From the sequence record MN642089.1: 64,000 nt of DNA. The stretch is one strand, 5' to 3'. Each line of letters begins with the position of its first letter. The stretch's first letter is position 1. Positions 3,531-49,720 of the stretch are shown one piece after another. The translations under genes and the position numbers were made by a program. A model generated the notes under the pieces. That model was given only the letters and a program-made list of their open reading frames with translations, had not been told where the DNA came from and ran no database searches. This stretch comes from Klebsiella phage N1M2.

Positions 3531-3889
3531 TGAAAGGTATTACAACCAGAGTTAAATCACATGCTAGTCTGAGCGGAGCTATACAGATCGACATGAGCAA
3601 TAGTTACGCCAAAGGTATAACTATCGAACGTTTACGTAAAGAGTTCTCAGAATGCGATCAGAGAGCTTTTGGAGGTATTGTTGATTGGTTGACTGCAAAT
3701 GAAAGTCAACTGGTTAAACCAGAAGCTTTCAGGGAAGCGGTAAGGGCAGCAATGTATGAAGTAGTCAAATTGATTCACCCAAATACATCGTTAGCTTTAT
3801 CAACTAACTTTAATGTTCTTTATGAACTGGTTATGGATTTCATTAAAGAACGTGACGCCAAAATTGCAGCTTATCAGAGGAACAAGTAA
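3527..3889 (+). CDS. hypothetical protein
   Basis: 120-aa ORF. AAGGAG RBS. ATGA overlap with the upstream gene. Confidence 0.55.
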   Translation: MMKGITTRVKSHASLSGAIQIDMSNSYAKGITIERLRKEFSECDQRAFGGIVDWLTANESQLVKPEAFREAVRAAMYEVVKLIHPNTSLALSTNFNVLYELVMDFIKERDAKIAAYQRNK

Positions 3890-4581
3890 TGAATGACCGC
3901 ATGAAGAAACTGTTTGAAGAATGTAGTCAGCTGGCTAAAGACAAAAACATCAATATCGTCTTACCGACATCGGGTGGTCCATCAAAATTAATGGTTGATG
4001 GAATTGAATATCTTGATGGCGGGACGGTTAAGGCCAATGTCATTAAAGGTCGCACTGTTGGAGGTTCTTTCCAGTTCAAGTTCGAACCTGGTTCGCCGAT
4101 GGCTAAGCTCAAAGAAATGAATGTTCCTCATGAAGCTTTCCAAGAGTTTCGTTTAGGGGCAGTTGCGGGATTGGTTAATCATGGGATCCCTATCGATGAG
4201 CAACTAAAATCATTAGTTGAAAGAATTGAAGCAGCTAACGGAAACTGGACCAAGTTCATCCGTACTCCTTCTGAAATCACTCCGATTTATAATGAGCATT
4301 TTGAACTGACTCTGACTAAGGCGGTTTATAACGCACTGGCTCAGAGCTATTCAGCAACTATGTCATTCAGACTGACAATTGCATCAAAAGAGTTGATTAA
4401 GGAAATCACTGAGCAGTACCTGAAGAAAAATAAAGCGCAAGTCGAAGTGACAGGGTGTGGAGTATATGTCCACTACGATACGGTTAAAGAGCTGGGTAAA
4501 GATATCACTAACGACAAGCCTTTTAATCCTGATGACCTAGTATTTACTATCATCCCTGGATCTACCATCAAACTGTCTTAA
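3889..4581 (+). CDS. hypothetical protein
   Basis: 230-aa ORF. TAATG overlap coupling with the upstream gene. Confidence 0.55.
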   Translation: MNDRMKKLFEECSQLAKDKNINIVLPTSGGPSKLMVDGIEYLDGGTVKANVIKGRTVGGSFQFKFEPGSPMAKLKEMNVPHEAFQEFRLGAVAGLVNHGIPIDEQLKSLVERIEAANGNWTKFIRTPSEITPIYNEHFELTLTKAVYNALAQSYSATMSFRLTIASKELIKEITEQYLKKNKAQVEVTGCGVYVHYDTVKELGKDITNDKPFNPDDLVFTIIPGSTIKLS

Positions 4582-4608
4582 TTAACAAATACTTAACTTT
4601 AGAGAGAA

Positions 4609-5376
4609 ATGAAAATGGATAATGTAAAAGTAACTGGTAATGGCCGTGTATTCCTTAGTGGCGAAGAACTTGATCGTAAGAAGATTATCGACATGATCAC
4701 TTTCAATAGTCGTCATGGTGCGATGTCTTCTTCTGATCTCCGTCCTGAAGGTGAACTTACTGTGGAGCAAATTCTTCAATGGGACGACATGTTCCCTGAA
4801 GTAGAATACAGTGAACAAATATTGGGGAAATATCAGGGTTCTGGTTATCTAACACCAGTCCAGGCTTTCTCAATTGACATCTCTGTTTTCGTCAAAGATA
4901 AAGGTTGGTTGCATCCACGTCACTGGCGTTATAATTATAATACTGGCATCATTGTGTTCCTTTGTCACGATCTGTTGGTTGGTGAAAAGATCATAATGAA
5001 TGTCAGCAGCCGTTCTAGTATCTTAGCCCGCAGATACATGGACAAATTTGAACGTGAAGGTATTGTGGGTGGTATTCGTCGTGGGATCTTTAACATGCTT
5101 GATTCTACAACTGAAACTAATAAGACTAGGATTAGTTTGATAGGTGGGCAACCGATCAAATCTGGCTGTTGGAAAGAAATGCTTGCCGAAATCAAAGGCG
5201 TCGCCATTACTCAGTTCCCTAATGGTTTAGGTTATCCGGCTGGACTCCATTCTGGTTACATGGAGTTGGATGACGATCGTCCTATGACTGTTCGTGGAAA
5301 TGGTCGCCAGAAGTTGATTGATAATGGTAAAGGTAAAATGTGGCCTGAAGCCCGTACTCGTAAAGGACGTAAATAA
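4609..5376 (+). CDS. hypothetical protein
   Basis: 255-aa ORF. RBS agagagaaatgaaaATG. Confidence 0.55.
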   Translation: MKMDNVKVTGNGRVFLSGEELDRKKIIDMITFNSRHGAMSSSDLRPEGELTVEQILQWDDMFPEVEYSEQILGKYQGSGYLTPVQAFSIDISVFVKDKGWLHPRHWRYNYNTGIIVFLCHDLLVGEKIIMNVSSRSSILARRYMDKFEREGIVGGIRRGIFNMLDSTTETNKTRISLIGGQPIKSGCWKEMLAEIKGVAITQFPNGLGYPAGLHSGYMELDDDRPMTVRGNGRQKLIDNGKGKMWPEARTRKGRK

Positions 5377-5897: not shown

Positions 5898-6316
5898 ACA
5901 AATTGACATTTCCTAATGAGTTCTCACGCTTCCATGCAACTGGTACTAAACCAGAGGTAGAGATCAAAGGTGTGGAATTGAAAAAGCCCAAAGATACTTC
6001 GCTTATTCCTGGTAAGAGCGTCAAGATCATCAATGAGACAGAAGGACTCATCAGCCGAATCGAGATGCTCTGCGTGTTTGGTAAATTCAACCGCGGTAAG
6101 TTATTATCTCTTTCTAAGCGCCGCAAGAAAATAGCTTTAGTGCGCGGTACGATGTTCTATGAAACAGCTACTGGTAAATTGGTAGATGCCAAGCATCGTT
6201 TTAAACCAGGTATATCTTCCATCCCGGTCATGGTTGAATGGGTAGAAAAAGAAGGACCCTCATTCACTAACTTTATGAACGAATGGGCCAAATACATTGC
6301 TGAAGGGGCGGAATAA
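5894..6316 (+). CDS. hypothetical protein
   Basis: 140-aa ORF. ATGA-type overlap with the upstream gene. Confidence 0.5.
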   Translation: MNKLTFPNEFSRFHATGTKPEVEIKGVELKKPKDTSLIPGKSVKIINETEGLISRIEMLCVFGKFNRGKLLSLSKRRKKIALVRGTMFYETATGKLVDAKHRFKPGISSIPVMVEWVEKEGPSFTNFMNEWAKYIAEGAE

Positions 6317-10587: not shown

Positions 10588-10614
10588 CCTCTTACTCCTT
10601 AACGGGAGTAAGAG
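10588..10614 (+). terminator. hairpin CCTCTTACTCC-TTAACG-GGAGTAAGAGG + T-tract
   Basis: Perfect 11-bp stem followed by ttcatattcatttgtatttattttt. Confidence 0.65.
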
Positions 10615-10639
10615 GTTCATATTCATTTGTATTTATTTT

Positions 10640-10668
10640 TGGACTTATATTATCTAAGTGTATAAGGA
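10640..10668 (+). promoter_or_regulatory. early promoter-like motif (GGACTTATATTATCTAAGTGTATAAGG)
   Basis: Same motif family as the other six copies. 40 bp upstream of 10704 with a downstream cttGTAGAAGGAG RBS block. Confidence 0.45.
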
Positions 10669-15661: not shown

Positions 15662-15713
15662 TACAATATTACCTTATTATAGTTAGGACATAGAATCCTT
15701 TAAACAAAATAAA

Positions 15714-35636: not shown

Positions 35637-35670
35637 ACTTCCTCCGATATCGATACTGTTTGGACATAGA

Positions 35671-35696
35671 ATCTGATAAAGAGTCCCTGGACGAAC
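35671..35696 (-). terminator. hairpin GAGTCCCTGG-ACGAAC-CCAGGGACTC (attenuator/terminator between structural genes)
   Basis: Perfect 10-bp stem in the 78-bp gap between the 245-aa and 938-aa genes. Confidence 0.45.
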
Positions 35697-35714: not shown

Positions 35715-36452
35715 TTAAGGTTCTATAACTAACGTGGTTCTGACACTACGTGAGCTGCATTTAACATCGGCATTACTAAACCATACTTCATAGTTAGTGC
35801 TGCTTTTGTTAGCAACATATGTGGTAAAGGTCACTGTTTTCTCATCAATGATCTTAGCGTCTCTGATCCAGTTAAATGTATTGGATCTCCCAGCAGCCTC
35901 ACTATACGTATAGTCTCGTTGTACAACCAACTTGTCTGATGTTATACCATCCTCAGGAAGTTTGACTGTCCACACCCCCAGGTTTCTTTCTTTGTCATAG
36001 ACAACTGAAACTTCGCCTGGGCCAACAGGAATATAATCGAATTCTGTTCTAGACGTATACTCAACACCGTCAGCTAATATAACTATATTAGTGGCCGCGC
36101 TATCTGGCTTATTGACGATATTTATATGAGCACGCAGACTGGTTTCTCCAAAGAGACCGTTTTCTCTCTTCCTTATTTTTAACGGACCAGTACCGCCCCA
36201 GATACCGGGCTCAAATCCTTTTACTTCCCACTCATTAATATAGGTAGTATTCCCTTTCTCATCAATGACTCTGAATGTTCCAAGTACTGAAGATTTGACC
36301 ATGTTATCCCATTCGGTAACTAGTTGGTTACCTCCTGTATACCCATAGCGCTGTTCAAATAAGATTGCAGGTCTACCCATATAACCATTGACCGCTCCAA
36401 ATGAAAATAATAACTGTTTTAAGTCAACAATGTGACCATAGGATCCGAACAT
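35715..36452 (-). CDS. structural-module protein, 245 aa
   Basis: First gene of the minus-strand structural run. Preceded by a UUCG hairpin. Confidence 0.55.
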   Translation of the reverse strand: MFGSYGHIVDLKQLLFSFGAVNGYMGRPAILFEQRYGYTGGNQLVTEWDNMVKSSVLGTFRVIDEKGNTTYINEWEVKGFEPGIWGGTGPLKIRKRENGLFGETSLRAHINIVNKPDSAATNIVILADGVEYTSRTEFDYIPVGPGEVSVVYDKERNLGVWTVKLPEDGITSDKLVVQRDYTYSEAAGRSNTFNWIRDAKIIDEKTVTFTTYVANKSSTNYEVWFSNADVKCSSRSVRTTLVIEP

Positions 36453-36453
36453 A

Positions 36454-36481
36454 GAGTAGGGTGGCTTCGGCCACCCTACTC
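36454..36481 (-). terminator. hairpin GAGTAGGGTGGC-TTCG-GCCACCCTACTC (UUCG tetraloop)
   Basis: Perfect 12-bp stem between the HNH stop (36495) and the 245-aa gene start (36452). Confidence 0.55.
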
Positions 36482-36494
36482 ATTATGATCTTAA

Positions 36495-37310
36495 TTAAAG
36501 TTCGAAGTCATTGAATGCGCCTTCTGCAACATTGGAATCGATTTGACCTACCAGGTAAGAACTAACCAAAGATTGTTTATCATGGGAGAAAGCCCAGCCA
36601 TTAACAATCTTCTTTCCATTAGATTTTAGAGCACGCCCTATCGATCTCCTAGATATTCCCAAGATTCCAGCACATTCATGGCTCGATTTGAATAACACGA
36701 GTTCAGTCCTGTCACTTATCTCAAGACCATAGAACATTTTACTTGTTCTGGTTCCGCTGTTATTAACTGAAAGTCCCTCTAATGTTATTTTCCATGTGTG
36801 GTCTAATAAAGTATCTTTATATTTATTGACAATCATTGTGCCTGAGACATTGGGAGTTCCAGCCCATCTTGATAGTTCTCGCAGAGAGTGTAGAGTGATG
36901 ACTTTTCCTGTCTTTACATTCTCTATCTTTATATGTTGGCTTGCTTTATTAAGTCCTGTCTTATATGCATGGAAGATGTTATCTGAATTGGTAGTCCATT
37001 CAAGATTGCTCTTAGTGCAGTCTAATTTATTACCATTAATGTGATTACAAGTTATTAGTTTGCAACCTTCTGGAAGATCTGGCCTTGGGCCATTAAATAT
37101 GGAACACACGGTGACATGAATAGTTATATAAGCCTGAACACCATAATCAGAGACGAGATTAACTGAACGATATCCATTACGGAGAAGGTCTTTCATTTTA
37201 AATTGGTCTTTCTTTCTCCTAACATCACCATTTTCATTTATCTCATAATTAGAGAACCCAGGTATGATTATCCAATTATCTTTATTATCCATGAATACCT
37301 CATGCCCCAT
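36495..37310 (-). CDS. HNH homing endonuclease (NUMOD4-like N-term) with C-terminal NrdB-tail duplication
   Basis: WIIIPGFSNYEINENGDVRR is the NUMOD4-like segment. CNHINGNKLDCTKSNLEWTTNSDN is the HNH motif. The last 26 aa ([22 protein letters not shown]) mirror the NrdB C-terminus. Confidence 0.8.
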   Translation of the reverse strand: MGHEVFMDNKDNWIIIPGFSNYEINENGDVRRKKDQFKMKDLLRNGYRSVNLVSDYGVQAYITIHVTVCSIFNGPRPDLPEGCKLITCNHINGNKLDCTKSNLEWTTNSDNIFHAYKTGLNKASQHIKIENVKTGKVITLHSLRELSRWAGTPNVSGTMIVNKYKDTLLDHTWKITLEGLSVNNSGTRTSKMFYGLEISDRTELVLFKSSHECAGILGISRRSIGRALKSNGKKIVNGWAFSHDKQSLVSSYLVGQIDSNVAEGAFNDFEL

Positions 37311-37332
37311 TTACCCAATTGGGTAAATGGGG
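37305..37332 (-). promoter_or_regulatory. 28-nt perfect palindrome CCCCATTTACCCAATTGGGTAAATGGGG enclosing the HNH start codon (translational sequestration hairpin)
   Basis: Read directly from the sequence. AUG lies in the 3' arm of a 12-bp stem with an AAUU loop. Confidence 0.6.
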
Positions 37333-37343
37333 ATGTTGTTTAT

Positions 37344-38489
37344 TTACAGACTAAAATCCGCAAAGTCATCAGTGTCGACTGTTGAATCAATTTGCCCCAC
37401 AAGATAGGAGCTGATCTCAGCCTCCTGTGGGGCCACCTGAACGTTGTCAGACACCAACCAGGAGTTAATCCATGGGATTGGGTTAGTGGTAGTTGTAAAT
37501 GGCATACCGAGCCCGATAGCGTTCATACGGATGTTCGCAATGTATTCAACATACTGGCACAGGATCGGCTCTGACAGACCAATCATAGAACCATCTTTAA
37601 ACAGGTATGCTGCCCATTCTTTTTCTTGCTGTACAACTTCCAAGAACATGTCGATTGATTCTTGTTTGCATTCTTCAGCAATTTCAGCCATCTCTGGATC
37701 ATCAGCACCATTTGCAAACAGATTCAGGATATGCTGAGTGCCAGTAAGGTGGAGAGCCTCATCACGTGCGATGAGTTTGATGATCTTAGCATTACCTTCC
37801 ATCAGCTTACGTTCTGCGAATGCAAACGAGCAAGCGAATGATACATAGAAACGAATAGCTTCCAGGGCGTTAACTGATTGAATACACAGATAAAGCGCTT
37901 TCTTAATCTCACGCAGGGTAACGACAACACGTTTACCATTAACAGTGTGAGTACCTTCACCCAGGTAATAATACTGCTGGGTTAAAGCAATCAGTTTATC
38001 GTAGTAACGGGACACCGCACCAGCACGACGGGTGATGTGTTCGTTATCCACAACATCTTCAAACACGATAGAAGGATCGTTAACGATGTTACGGATGATG
38101 TGGGTATAGGAACGAGAGTGAATCGTTTCTGAGAAGCCCCAGGTCTCTGCCCATGTTTCCAGTTCTGGAATACTGATAATCGGAAGGAAGGCTACGTTAG
38201 GCCCACGACCCTGTACGGAATCCAGAAGCGTCTGATATTTGAGGTTACTGATGAAGATATGCTTTTCATGTTCCGGAAGGTTCATGTAGTCAATACGGTC
38301 ACGAGTAACGTCAACTTCTTCAGGACGCCAGAAGAAAGACAGTTGCTTTTCAATAAGCTTTTCAAAGATACCGTGCTTTTGTTGGTCATAACGAGAAACG
38401 TTAACGTTCTGACCCATGAACATGTGTTCTAACAGTTGGTTGTTTTTATTTTGGTTAAAAGTTGAATAGCCGGACATGTTTAACTCCAA
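37344..38489 (-). CDS. nrdB: ribonucleotide reductase class Ia beta subunit
   Basis: 381 aa. Near-colinear high identity to enterobacterial NrdB, recalled from memory ([54 protein letters not shown]-terminal [20 protein letters not shown]). Confidence 0.9.
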
Positions 38490-49643: not shown

Positions 49644-49671
49644 CCCTCTATTCCTTAACGGGAATAGAGGG
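49644..49671 (+). terminator. hairpin CCCTCTATTCC-TTAACG-GGAATAGAGGG
   Basis: Perfect 11-bp stem. Same TTAACGG loop as the hairpin at 10588. Confidence 0.6.
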
Positions 49672-49690
49672 GTTGGATTTCAGTTGTATT

Positions 49691-49720
49691 TCTTTTCAGA
49701 CATATATAATTAAAGTGTAT
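49691..49720 (+). promoter_or_regulatory. early promoter-like motif (TCTTTTCAGACATATATAATTAAAGTGTAT) with TTGTAT -35-like element
   Basis: TTGTAT, then 15 nt, then TATAAT. Motif family. Confidence 0.55.

Follow-up and report, generated by a model that had tools for sequence, protein, structure and literature searches.

A palindromic stem-loop between nrdB and an HNH homing endonuclease gene of Klebsiella phage N1M2 as a probable gene-end element

We analysed a stretch of 64,000 nucleotides (nt; hereafter the window) of Klebsiella phage N1M2 (sequence record MN642089.1) with respect to a palindrome that lies between nrdB, the gene for the small subunit of ribonucleotide reductase, and a gene for an HNH homing endonuclease. 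The window corresponds to positions 128001-192000 of the N1M2 genome, as placed via the terminator table of the N1M2 paper (PMC7058600). N1M2, an OBP/phiKZ-like jumbo phage, possesses multisubunit RNA polymerases of its own and is, within the phage collection, most closely related to the Petsuvirus phages Yubaba, Sureiya and pEt-SU. Both genes are on the minus strand, within a minus-strand block that extends from 15755 to 38489. The functional nrdB occupies 37344-38474 (Pfam PF00268, E = 1.3e-46), ends with the stop codon TAA at 37346-37344 and is 85% identical at the nucleotide level to nrdB of Serratia phage Yubaba; its mechanically called open reading frame (ORF) starts with a TTG at 38489, and the ATG at 38474 gives the N-terminus MSGYSTF. 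The endonuclease gene, N1M2_165 (265 amino acids; Pfam HNH_3 and NUMOD4; PHROG 59), lies at 36495-37292 with a probable start codon AUG at 37292-37290, its ORF extending from either 37310 or 37292 down to 36495.

The sequence at 37305-37332 reads CCCCATTTACCCAATTGGGTAAATGGGG on the plus strand and is, as a first-pass annotation of this DNA had pointed out, a perfect 28-nt palindrome on either strand. The folding calculation proposed in that annotation gave, for the 28 nt folded alone as minus-strand RNA, a perfect 12-bp stem (CCCCAUUUACCC/GGGUAAAUGGGG) with an AAUU loop and an energy of -20.9 kcal/mol. In a context of 91 nt the minimum free energy (MFE) was -28.7 kcal/mol compared to -17.5 ± 3.2 kcal/mol for shuffled sequences (z = -3.5), and none of the four folding contexts left any part of the stem unpaired (unpaired probability 0.00). 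The palindrome was absent from 100/100 shuffles, and hairpins with a perfect stem of at least 12 bp were found 7 times in the window as compared to 0.03 expected from dinucleotide shuffles. The annotation had also suggested a search for further copies in the genome; within the 64-kb window there was no second copy even with up to 3 mismatches tolerated. Exact scans of IMG/VR with the palindrome and with a recoded 17-mer of the nrdB tail (described below) gave zero matches, and no Rfam family matched the palindrome at its gathering score, the sole match being a spurious 25-bit hit to a microRNA hairpin model (gathering score 97). A role as substrate for RNase III was set aside, since a stem of 12 bp would be too short.

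The stem-loop starts 11 nt past the nrdB stop codon, from which it is separated by the A-rich 11-nt spacer AUAAACAACAU (37333-37343, minus strand), a spacing typical of gene-end hairpins in N1M2. Located 3' of the stem is the sequence CAU-GAGG-UAUUC-AUG, in which GAGG (37298-37301, minus strand) is the Shine-Dalgarno (SD) sequence of the HNH gene, about 3-4 nt from the stem and 5 nt before AUG 37292, which is itself 12 nt beyond the stem. The first in-frame AUG of the ORF, at 37308-37310 on the minus strand, lies in the 3' arm of the stem and begins 33 nt past the nrdB stop, the distance given in the first-pass annotation.

Conservation of pairing after nrdB

Homologues of the endonuclease were found directly after nrdB in unrelated metagenome jumbo-phage contigs (72% identity in L004, 64% in L005, 51% in L006 and 51% in L007-L010) and in Erwinia phage RAY (46% identity; L092, which is the same as L173). 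In every cassette compared the nrdB stop and the endonuclease AUG are separated by a stem-loop, the sequence of which differs between cassettes: CCUCACUUAUCC-AUAAA-GGGUGAGUGAGG in L004, AACCUUAUUCUGC-AAAU-GCAGAAUAAGGUU in L006, ACCCUAUACUGC-UUAGAU-GCAGUAUAGGGU in L007, an 8-bp stem in L005 and a long imperfect stem in RAY. N1M2 and L004 can be aligned base by base, and pairing is kept at all 6 stem bases that differ between them, the changes from N1M2 to L004 being C-G to U-A, U-A to C-G and two changes to G-U. The stems of L006 and L007 differ by 2 compensatory pairs, and 48/48 stem cells are paired. These pair counts were obtained from a manual stem alignment, the MAFFT alignment of the four intergenic regions being out of structural register. 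Given that G-U pairs work in the sense RNA alone, break the DNA palindrome and give A-C mismatches in the antisense RNA, this pattern argues for selection acting on the RNA structure of the nrdB/HNH transcript and not on a DNA site, and the palindrome is regarded here as functional in RNA form.

Each of 14 nrdB tail copies from 10 related loci was found to have a stem-loop no more than about 20 nt past its stop codon, the copies comprising 6 functional tails of endonuclease-bearing loci, 5 displaced remnants (see below) and the tails of the endonuclease-free Yubaba, Sureiya and pEt-SU. The 13 nrdB-tail stem-loops that were folded had energies between -13 and -31 kcal/mol. In Erwinia phage Deimos-Minion, in which the nrdB end is free of endonuclease, the native end is identical to the remnant plus hairpin of RAY.

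L006 and L007 lack a remnant, the endonuclease ends with a stop codon of its own and a single hairpin is found between nrdB and the endonuclease. The order at these two loci is nrdB, hairpin, endonuclease and then a conserved TATG motif, which elsewhere is located directly after the nrdB hairpin. The motif here follows the endonuclease and not the hairpin, as would be expected if the nrdB hairpin was there first and the endonuclease entered immediately 3' of it.

The replacement-tail cassette

Two versions of the nrdB 3' end are present in N1M2. The functional gene ends in a replacement tail (37344-37406, minus strand), and the displaced native tail, 22 residues plus the stop codon, is found at 36495-36563 (minus strand), where it supplies the in-frame C-terminus of the HNH ORF. 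The replacement tail is 80% identical to the functional tail of L004 and 55% identical to N1M2's own remnant, while this remnant is 76% identical to the native tail of Yubaba and the remnant of L005 is identical to the Yubaba tail at 63/63 positions; the functional tails group together and the remnants group with native tails. The HNH cassette, as judged from these sequence relationships, displaces the native nrdB tail, which persists as an in-frame remnant in N1M2. In N1M2, L004 and L005 the reading frame of the endonuclease runs into the native tail, which forms its C-terminus; in L011 and RAY the native tail is located after the endonuclease's own stop. The cassettes occupy 36495-37422 (minus strand) in the window, 3880-4790 in L004, 3819-4700 in L005, 680-830 in L011 and 2624-3650 in L092. 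Relative to Sureiya, L005 has an insert of 788 bp (3843-4630), and 30 nt are duplicated as an overlap at the target. The mobile unit, as these comparisons delimit it, is composed of the recoded tail, the stop codon, the hairpin, the SD sequence and the HNH gene, with the hairpin inside the unit.

The native tail sequence TAYCTGGTNGGTCA is recoded in all five petsuvirus-like endonuclease-bearing copies and is the probable target of the endonuclease. The native form is TCYTACCTGGTAGGTCA and the recoded form is the 17-mer TCCTATCTTGTGGGGCA, which is invariant in 5/5 petsuvirus-like endonuclease-bearing loci while neighbouring synonymous sites vary. In N1M2 the replacement tail contains the recoded TATCTTGTGGGGCA form of the presumed target site, and the remnant keeps the unrecoded TACCTGGTAGGTCA, which is also found in endonuclease-free phages. 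A metagenome scan with the 17-mer gave 30 matches, of which 29 were chance matches and 1 was a real nrdB (L188) without an endonuclease, adding no cassettes to the covariation set; a scan of IMG/VR with the nrdB protein gave just distant or bacterial-like nrdB loci, which were not used.

The locus L188 (metagenome contig Ga0265293_10012594, minus strand, around position 6277) is a bacterial nrdB-yfaE locus that shares the 17-mer of the recoded tail, and the replacement tail of N1M2 is closer to the L188 tail SEVSSDDLSGFEL than the N1M2 remnant is. The enterobacterial NrdB tail is presumably also closer to the replacement tail than to the N1M2 remnant. This hints that the replacement tail was derived from a different nrdB lineage; it is 77% identical to E. 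coli nrdB over 108 nt, a value that gives no clear pointer to its origin.

An intron or intein that houses the endonuclease was considered and ruled out: the nrdB copy upstream is whole, including a stop codon, and the tail downstream duplicates its end. The Rfam intron search returned a sole intron, located elsewhere in nrdB of L006 (3240-3478; an ORF-less group I intron, RF00028, 69 bits). In Sureiya (L002, 3096-3998) and L005 (2503-3438) nrdB is split by an HNH_3/HTH ORF, L005 carrying the 3'-end cassette in addition. The nrdB of L006, Sureiya and L005 is a hotspot for mobile elements. The sibling Agricanvirus phages Deimos-Minion (L172, 1992-2828) and RAY (L173, 1986-2819) have related HNH genes on opposite sides of nrdB: the one in Deimos-Minion is 38% identical and precedes nrdB by 13 nt, a gap too small for a hairpin, and the one in RAY (46% identical) is located downstream of nrdB with a replacement tail.

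The native gene-end hairpin of nrdB, GAGUAGGGUGGC-CGAA-GCCACCCUACUC, is now located past the HNH gene, at 36454-36481 (minus strand). By position it corresponds to the hairpins that follow nrdB in Yubaba and pEt-SU, and the N1M2 authors list it as terminator tORF165. In the region 36383-36452 (minus strand) an ORF of 245 amino acids has its first ATG 1 nt past this hairpin, without an SD sequence and with a TATG-type motif within its first codons. In Yubaba the equivalent ATG opens an ORF of just 20 codons, and the true start of the 245-amino-acid ORF is doubtful.

Replacement-tail cassettes were found in at least two jumbo phage genera, the Petsuvirus-like phages and Agricanvirus (phage RAY). 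It is conceivable, and we put this forward tentatively, that the hairpin is an obligatory module of such a homing cassette, one that restores the end of the nrdB message and gates endonuclease expression. A free-standing HNH gene would then invade the coding sequence of the essential nrdB without an intron or intein by bringing with it the cleavage-immune recoded last ~22 codons, a stop codon and a 3'-end hairpin. A comparable arrangement was reportedly described by Paquin, Laforest and Lang in 1994 for the mitochondrial atp6 of Allomyces, in which a mobile ORF of the GIY-YIG type is said to bring a replacement 3' end. The two cases are alike in that a foreign C-terminal coding segment arrives with the endonuclease while the native segment persists further downstream in the form of a remnant, and they differ in that the present one involves phage nrdB and an HNH gene, with the remnant in frame as the endonuclease C-terminus in three loci. 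The comparison concerns the context of the hairpin and not the hairpin itself.

Gene-end hairpins in the window and the end of the nrdB message

All hairpins with a perfect stem of at least 9 bp and a loop of 3-8 nt were collected from the 64-kb window, and the class of gene-end hairpins was defined operationally from this census. There were 12 such hairpins as compared to 1.6 in shuffled sequences, and all of them were located outside ORFs, that is within 7.7% of the window. Nine of the 12 begin 7-13 nt past a stop codon (at 7, 7, 7, 8, 8, 8, 11, 11 and 13 nt), the palindrome being one of the two at 11 nt, and the 5' flanks are often A-rich (e.g. ATAAT, AATAA). With its 12-bp stem, 4-nt loop, intergenic location 11 nt past a TAA codon and the flank AUAAACAACAU, the palindrome belongs to this class. 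Several of the census hairpins, including both neighbours of the palindrome (window 35680 and 36454; tORF164 and tORF165), were listed as rho-independent by the N1M2 authors, who obtained 56 terminators with ARNold (PMC7058600, Suppl. Table 5).

In related giant phages conserved stem-loops mark mapped 3' ends of transcripts (PMC11512511), and for phiKZ the terminator motif BCCYCCCCHWWDGGGRRGGBYTTATKYYGT has been given (PMC10914365). The palindrome resembles phiKZ-type terminators and the ARNold set of N1M2 in having a GC-capped perfect stem of about 12 bp, a 4-nt loop, an intergenic location just past a stop codon and an A-rich 5' flank. It differs from phiKZ-type terminators in that no TTAT or U-rich tail is found on the transcribed strand, where the SD sequence and AUG of the endonuclease are located instead; just the antisense strand carries a tail-like ATGTTGT.

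Two sets of side observations concern the sequences that follow other hairpins of this class. At 10588-10654 and 49644-49711 (plus strand) gene-end hairpins are followed within about 25 nt by a match to the early-promoter consensus (pORF149 and pORF187), an arrangement that recalls the PeSL cassettes of T4-type phages (PMC2839356). Unlike these two hairpins, the palindrome has no early-promoter match directly 3' of it. The second set concerns the motif GGATYCTATGKYC, which is located directly 3' of gene-end hairpins and upstream of virion-type genes at 15686-15698, 35662-35674 and 36434-36446 (minus strand). These three are the only sites in the window at 0-1 mismatch, and the motif is conserved in Yubaba (L001), pEt-SU (L003), L004, L005, L006, L007 and L011. 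The motif may be a late promoter. Late promoters of phiKZ reportedly have a TATG core, which the phiKZ paper examined does not state.

Given that the palindrome is a member of this hairpin class and that a stem-loop follows all 14 nrdB tails, with or without an endonuclease, we consider it probable, with some reservation, that the palindrome is the gene-end (3'-end or insulator) stem-loop of nrdB within the homing-endonuclease cassette, giving nrdB a normal message end and incidentally restricting expression of the endonuclease. On the transcript from the minus strand, the hairpin that forms 11 nt past the nrdB stop would provide the rebuilt nrdB message with an ordinary 3' terminus, through partial termination, by blocking 3' exonucleases, or both. 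As a member of the stop-proximal class of N1M2 it would in this respect resemble the terminator or 3'-end hairpins of the phiKZ type.

Since no recognizable promoter was found between nrdB and the endonuclease, expression of the endonuclease probably relies on read-through of the hairpin, and the protein would be made just from read-through transcripts, from AUG 37292 with the SD sequence GAGG. The promoter search covered two motif types, and within 37290-37430 there was no match to the early-promoter consensus of N1M2 or to the TATG-type GGATYCTATGKYC. A scan for sigma-70 promoters gave fewer sites than in shuffles and was uninformative, N1M2 also using its own RNA polymerases. The base of the stem is placed about 3-4 nt from the SD sequence, in the ribosome standby region, so that translation would probably be dampened too. 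The analysis shows the structure, its place in the class by position and shape, its conservation through compensatory changes, the assignment of the start codon and the build of the cassette, whereas termination or stabilization and the dampening of the endonuclease are inferred.

Several observations weigh against this interpretation. The palindrome is missing from the 56 ARNold terminators of the N1M2 authors, its sense 3' flank CAUGAGGUAUUC (4 U in 12) having neither a TTAT nor a U-rich tail, and termination at the palindrome may be weak or absent. The missing tail appears to lower the case for termination without excluding it, because in phage 201phi2-1, in which 52/132 mapped ends fit ARNold, the tested non-ARNold terminators performed no differently (PMC11512511). 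Other observations concern translation. In 5 of 6 endonuclease loci the accessibility of the SD window, which partly overlaps the stem, does not exceed the 7th percentile of 46 window genes, the predicted stems of L005 and RAY include the SD sequence, and in four cassettes the hairpin is separated from the endonuclease AUG by a tight distance that varies little (12-16 nt). On these grounds a dedicated translational role is conceivable, and it would be compatible with a gene-end role.

Alternative functions and the start codon of the endonuclease

The alternative that survives best, and which we nevertheless consider unlikely, is that the stem-loop is a dedicated translational repressor, which together with weak extensions (the 5' spacer with the CAUG/GAGGU flank) occludes the SD sequence or standby site of start 37292 and thereby keeps the level of HNH low on read-through nrdB transcripts. 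This strategy is documented for T4-type homing endonucleases: hairpins that sequester the ribosome-binding site (RBS) are found at I-TevI, I-TevII, I-TevIII and segB and at mobE of Aeh1 (Gibb and Edgell 2007/2009, as cited in PMC2988022). The N1M2 locus is similar in that a homing endonuclease gene, located in or beside a ribonucleotide reductase gene and expressed by read-through, is immediately preceded by a stable hairpin. In the T4 family, however, the stem contains the SD sequence and/or the AUG, and transcripts free of the hairpin arise from a late promoter, whereas in N1M2 the probable SD and AUG are outside the stem, 4-12 nt beyond it, and no internal or late promoter, the hallmark of the T4 case, was detectable within 37290-37430. 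The geometry matches that of seg43(25) of Aeromonas phage 25, where the hairpin is immediately upstream of the RBS and does not sequester it (PMC2988022); this is a GIY-YIG seg gene of a T4-like phage and the analogy comes without a mechanism.

The closeness of the stem base to the SD sequence and the SD accessibilities and stems mentioned above favor repression, and the folding predictions point in both directions. In the MFE structure the helix is longer and takes in 2 of the 4 SD bases, and in the context from -70 to +35 the SD is unpaired with a probability of 0.05, which is lifted to 0.46 by in silico disruption of the 5' arm. In the three other contexts, however, the SD probability is 0.45-0.49, and in the sole context with an occluded SD the AUG 37292 is accessible (0.78), so that occlusion is not robust; over all contexts the predicted accessibility varies between 0.05 and 0.49 for the SD and between 0.25 and 0.78 for the AUG, and pairing of the SD arises just via weak, context-dependent extensions. 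In addition, SD accessibility is normal in L006, and equivalent hairpins follow nrdB in genomes without the endonuclease. Dampening of translation by the hairpin is plausible from these models and is not robustly predicted. The first-pass annotation had related the palindrome to the strategy of keeping endonuclease translation off on read-through transcripts, and of this idea the RNA stem-loop between nrdB and HNH, placed to limit read-through, holds up. Sequestration of the start does not, the probable start and SD being outside the stem, and neither does a dedicated switch, given the generic gene-end position and shape of the hairpin and the equivalent hairpins of endonuclease-free nrdB.

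It is very improbable that the palindrome is a terminator for antisense (plus-strand) transcription that halts antisense entry into nrdB. The plus-strand tail ATGTTGTTTATTT (37333-37345) resembles the ATKYYGT part of the phiKZ motif and matches tails in the N1M2 terminator table (e.g. GGGGTTTTATGTTGTTT), and a terminator scan flags the palindrome on the plus strand. However, no plus-strand gene or recognizable promoter is located upstream, the region being part of the 15755-38489 minus-strand block; the A-rich 5' flank that makes up the tail is common to other gene-end hairpins; and the G-U pairs of L004 would be A-C mismatches on the antisense RNA. Given the plus-strand tail, the palindrome could act bidirectionally, again with no plus-strand gene upstream.

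The first-pass annotation had placed the AUG of the HNH gene in the 3' arm of the stem. An in-frame ATG is indeed present there, at 37310; as the start codon of the HNH gene this position finds little favor, and that it is the true initiation codon, shut off by the stem, is highly improbable. It is the first in-frame ATG of the HNH ORF and is wholly paired (unpaired probability 0.00) in every predicted ensemble. But AUG 37310 has no SD at a usable distance, there being just a GGG 3 nt upstream which is itself inside the stem, and the deposited N1M2_165 (265 amino acids) corresponds with 100% identity and coverage to the ORF from the second ATG, 37292. The 6-residue N-terminal extension MGHEVF that would result from the upstream start is absent in 5/5 homologues (72-50% identity): L006 starts with MGNKDNW and L007 with MDNENNW, both of which align with M7 of N1M2 (MDNKDNW), and L004 and L005 start with MNWK and MEWK. 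In L004, L006, L007 and RAY the ATG matching the N-termini of the homologues is located 3' of the stem, and the NUMOD4 domain starts at residue 12 if the long form is assumed and at residue 6, the usual position, in the short form. The SD region TGAGGT is conserved in L004. Given that the deposited protein, the homologues and the SD sequence all point to 37292, AUG 37292 is most likely the start of the HNH gene and AUG 37310 not a start codon; the latter would be a locked and unused in-frame codon within the stem.

The least probable alternative is a DNA-level element, such as a site for protein binding, cleavage or cruciform formation, for instance the recognition site or operator of the endonuclease itself, or a site of recombination in cassette mobility, as the first-pass annotation had considered for cleavage or recognition: the perfect 28-bp palindrome contains CAATTG and I-TevI binds an operator resembling its own target site (PMC2988022), but among cassettes with 51-72% identical endonucleases pairing alone is conserved and not sequence, the two G-U pairs of L004 would not pair in duplex DNA or on the antisense strand, different, unrelated hairpins are found in the alleles without endonuclease (Yubaba, Sureiya, pEt-SU and Deimos-Minion), which would be the homing targets, the likely target is TAYCTGGTNGGTCA in the nrdB tail, which is recoded in the petsuvirus-like endonuclease-bearing copies, and the window has no second copy.

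The nrdB gene-end reading thus preferred here places the palindrome in a known kind of element, and the replacement-tail cassette around it is the more interesting biology. The analysis corrects the view that the AUG "hidden" by the hairpin is the start codon of the endonuclease, and conservation of the hairpin is explained by the upstream gene. Taken alone, the hairpin would be an ordinary gene-end element. If it terminates or stabilizes RNA without a U-tract, it would add to the non-canonical terminators of the RNA polymerases of phiKZ-like jumbo phages. The cassette context illustrates a way for a homing endonuclease to become established within the 3' end of an essential gene, bringing along a recoded replacement tail and the end-of-message hairpin of that gene, and would be a clean natural example of mobile elements insulating the expression of the host gene from their own.

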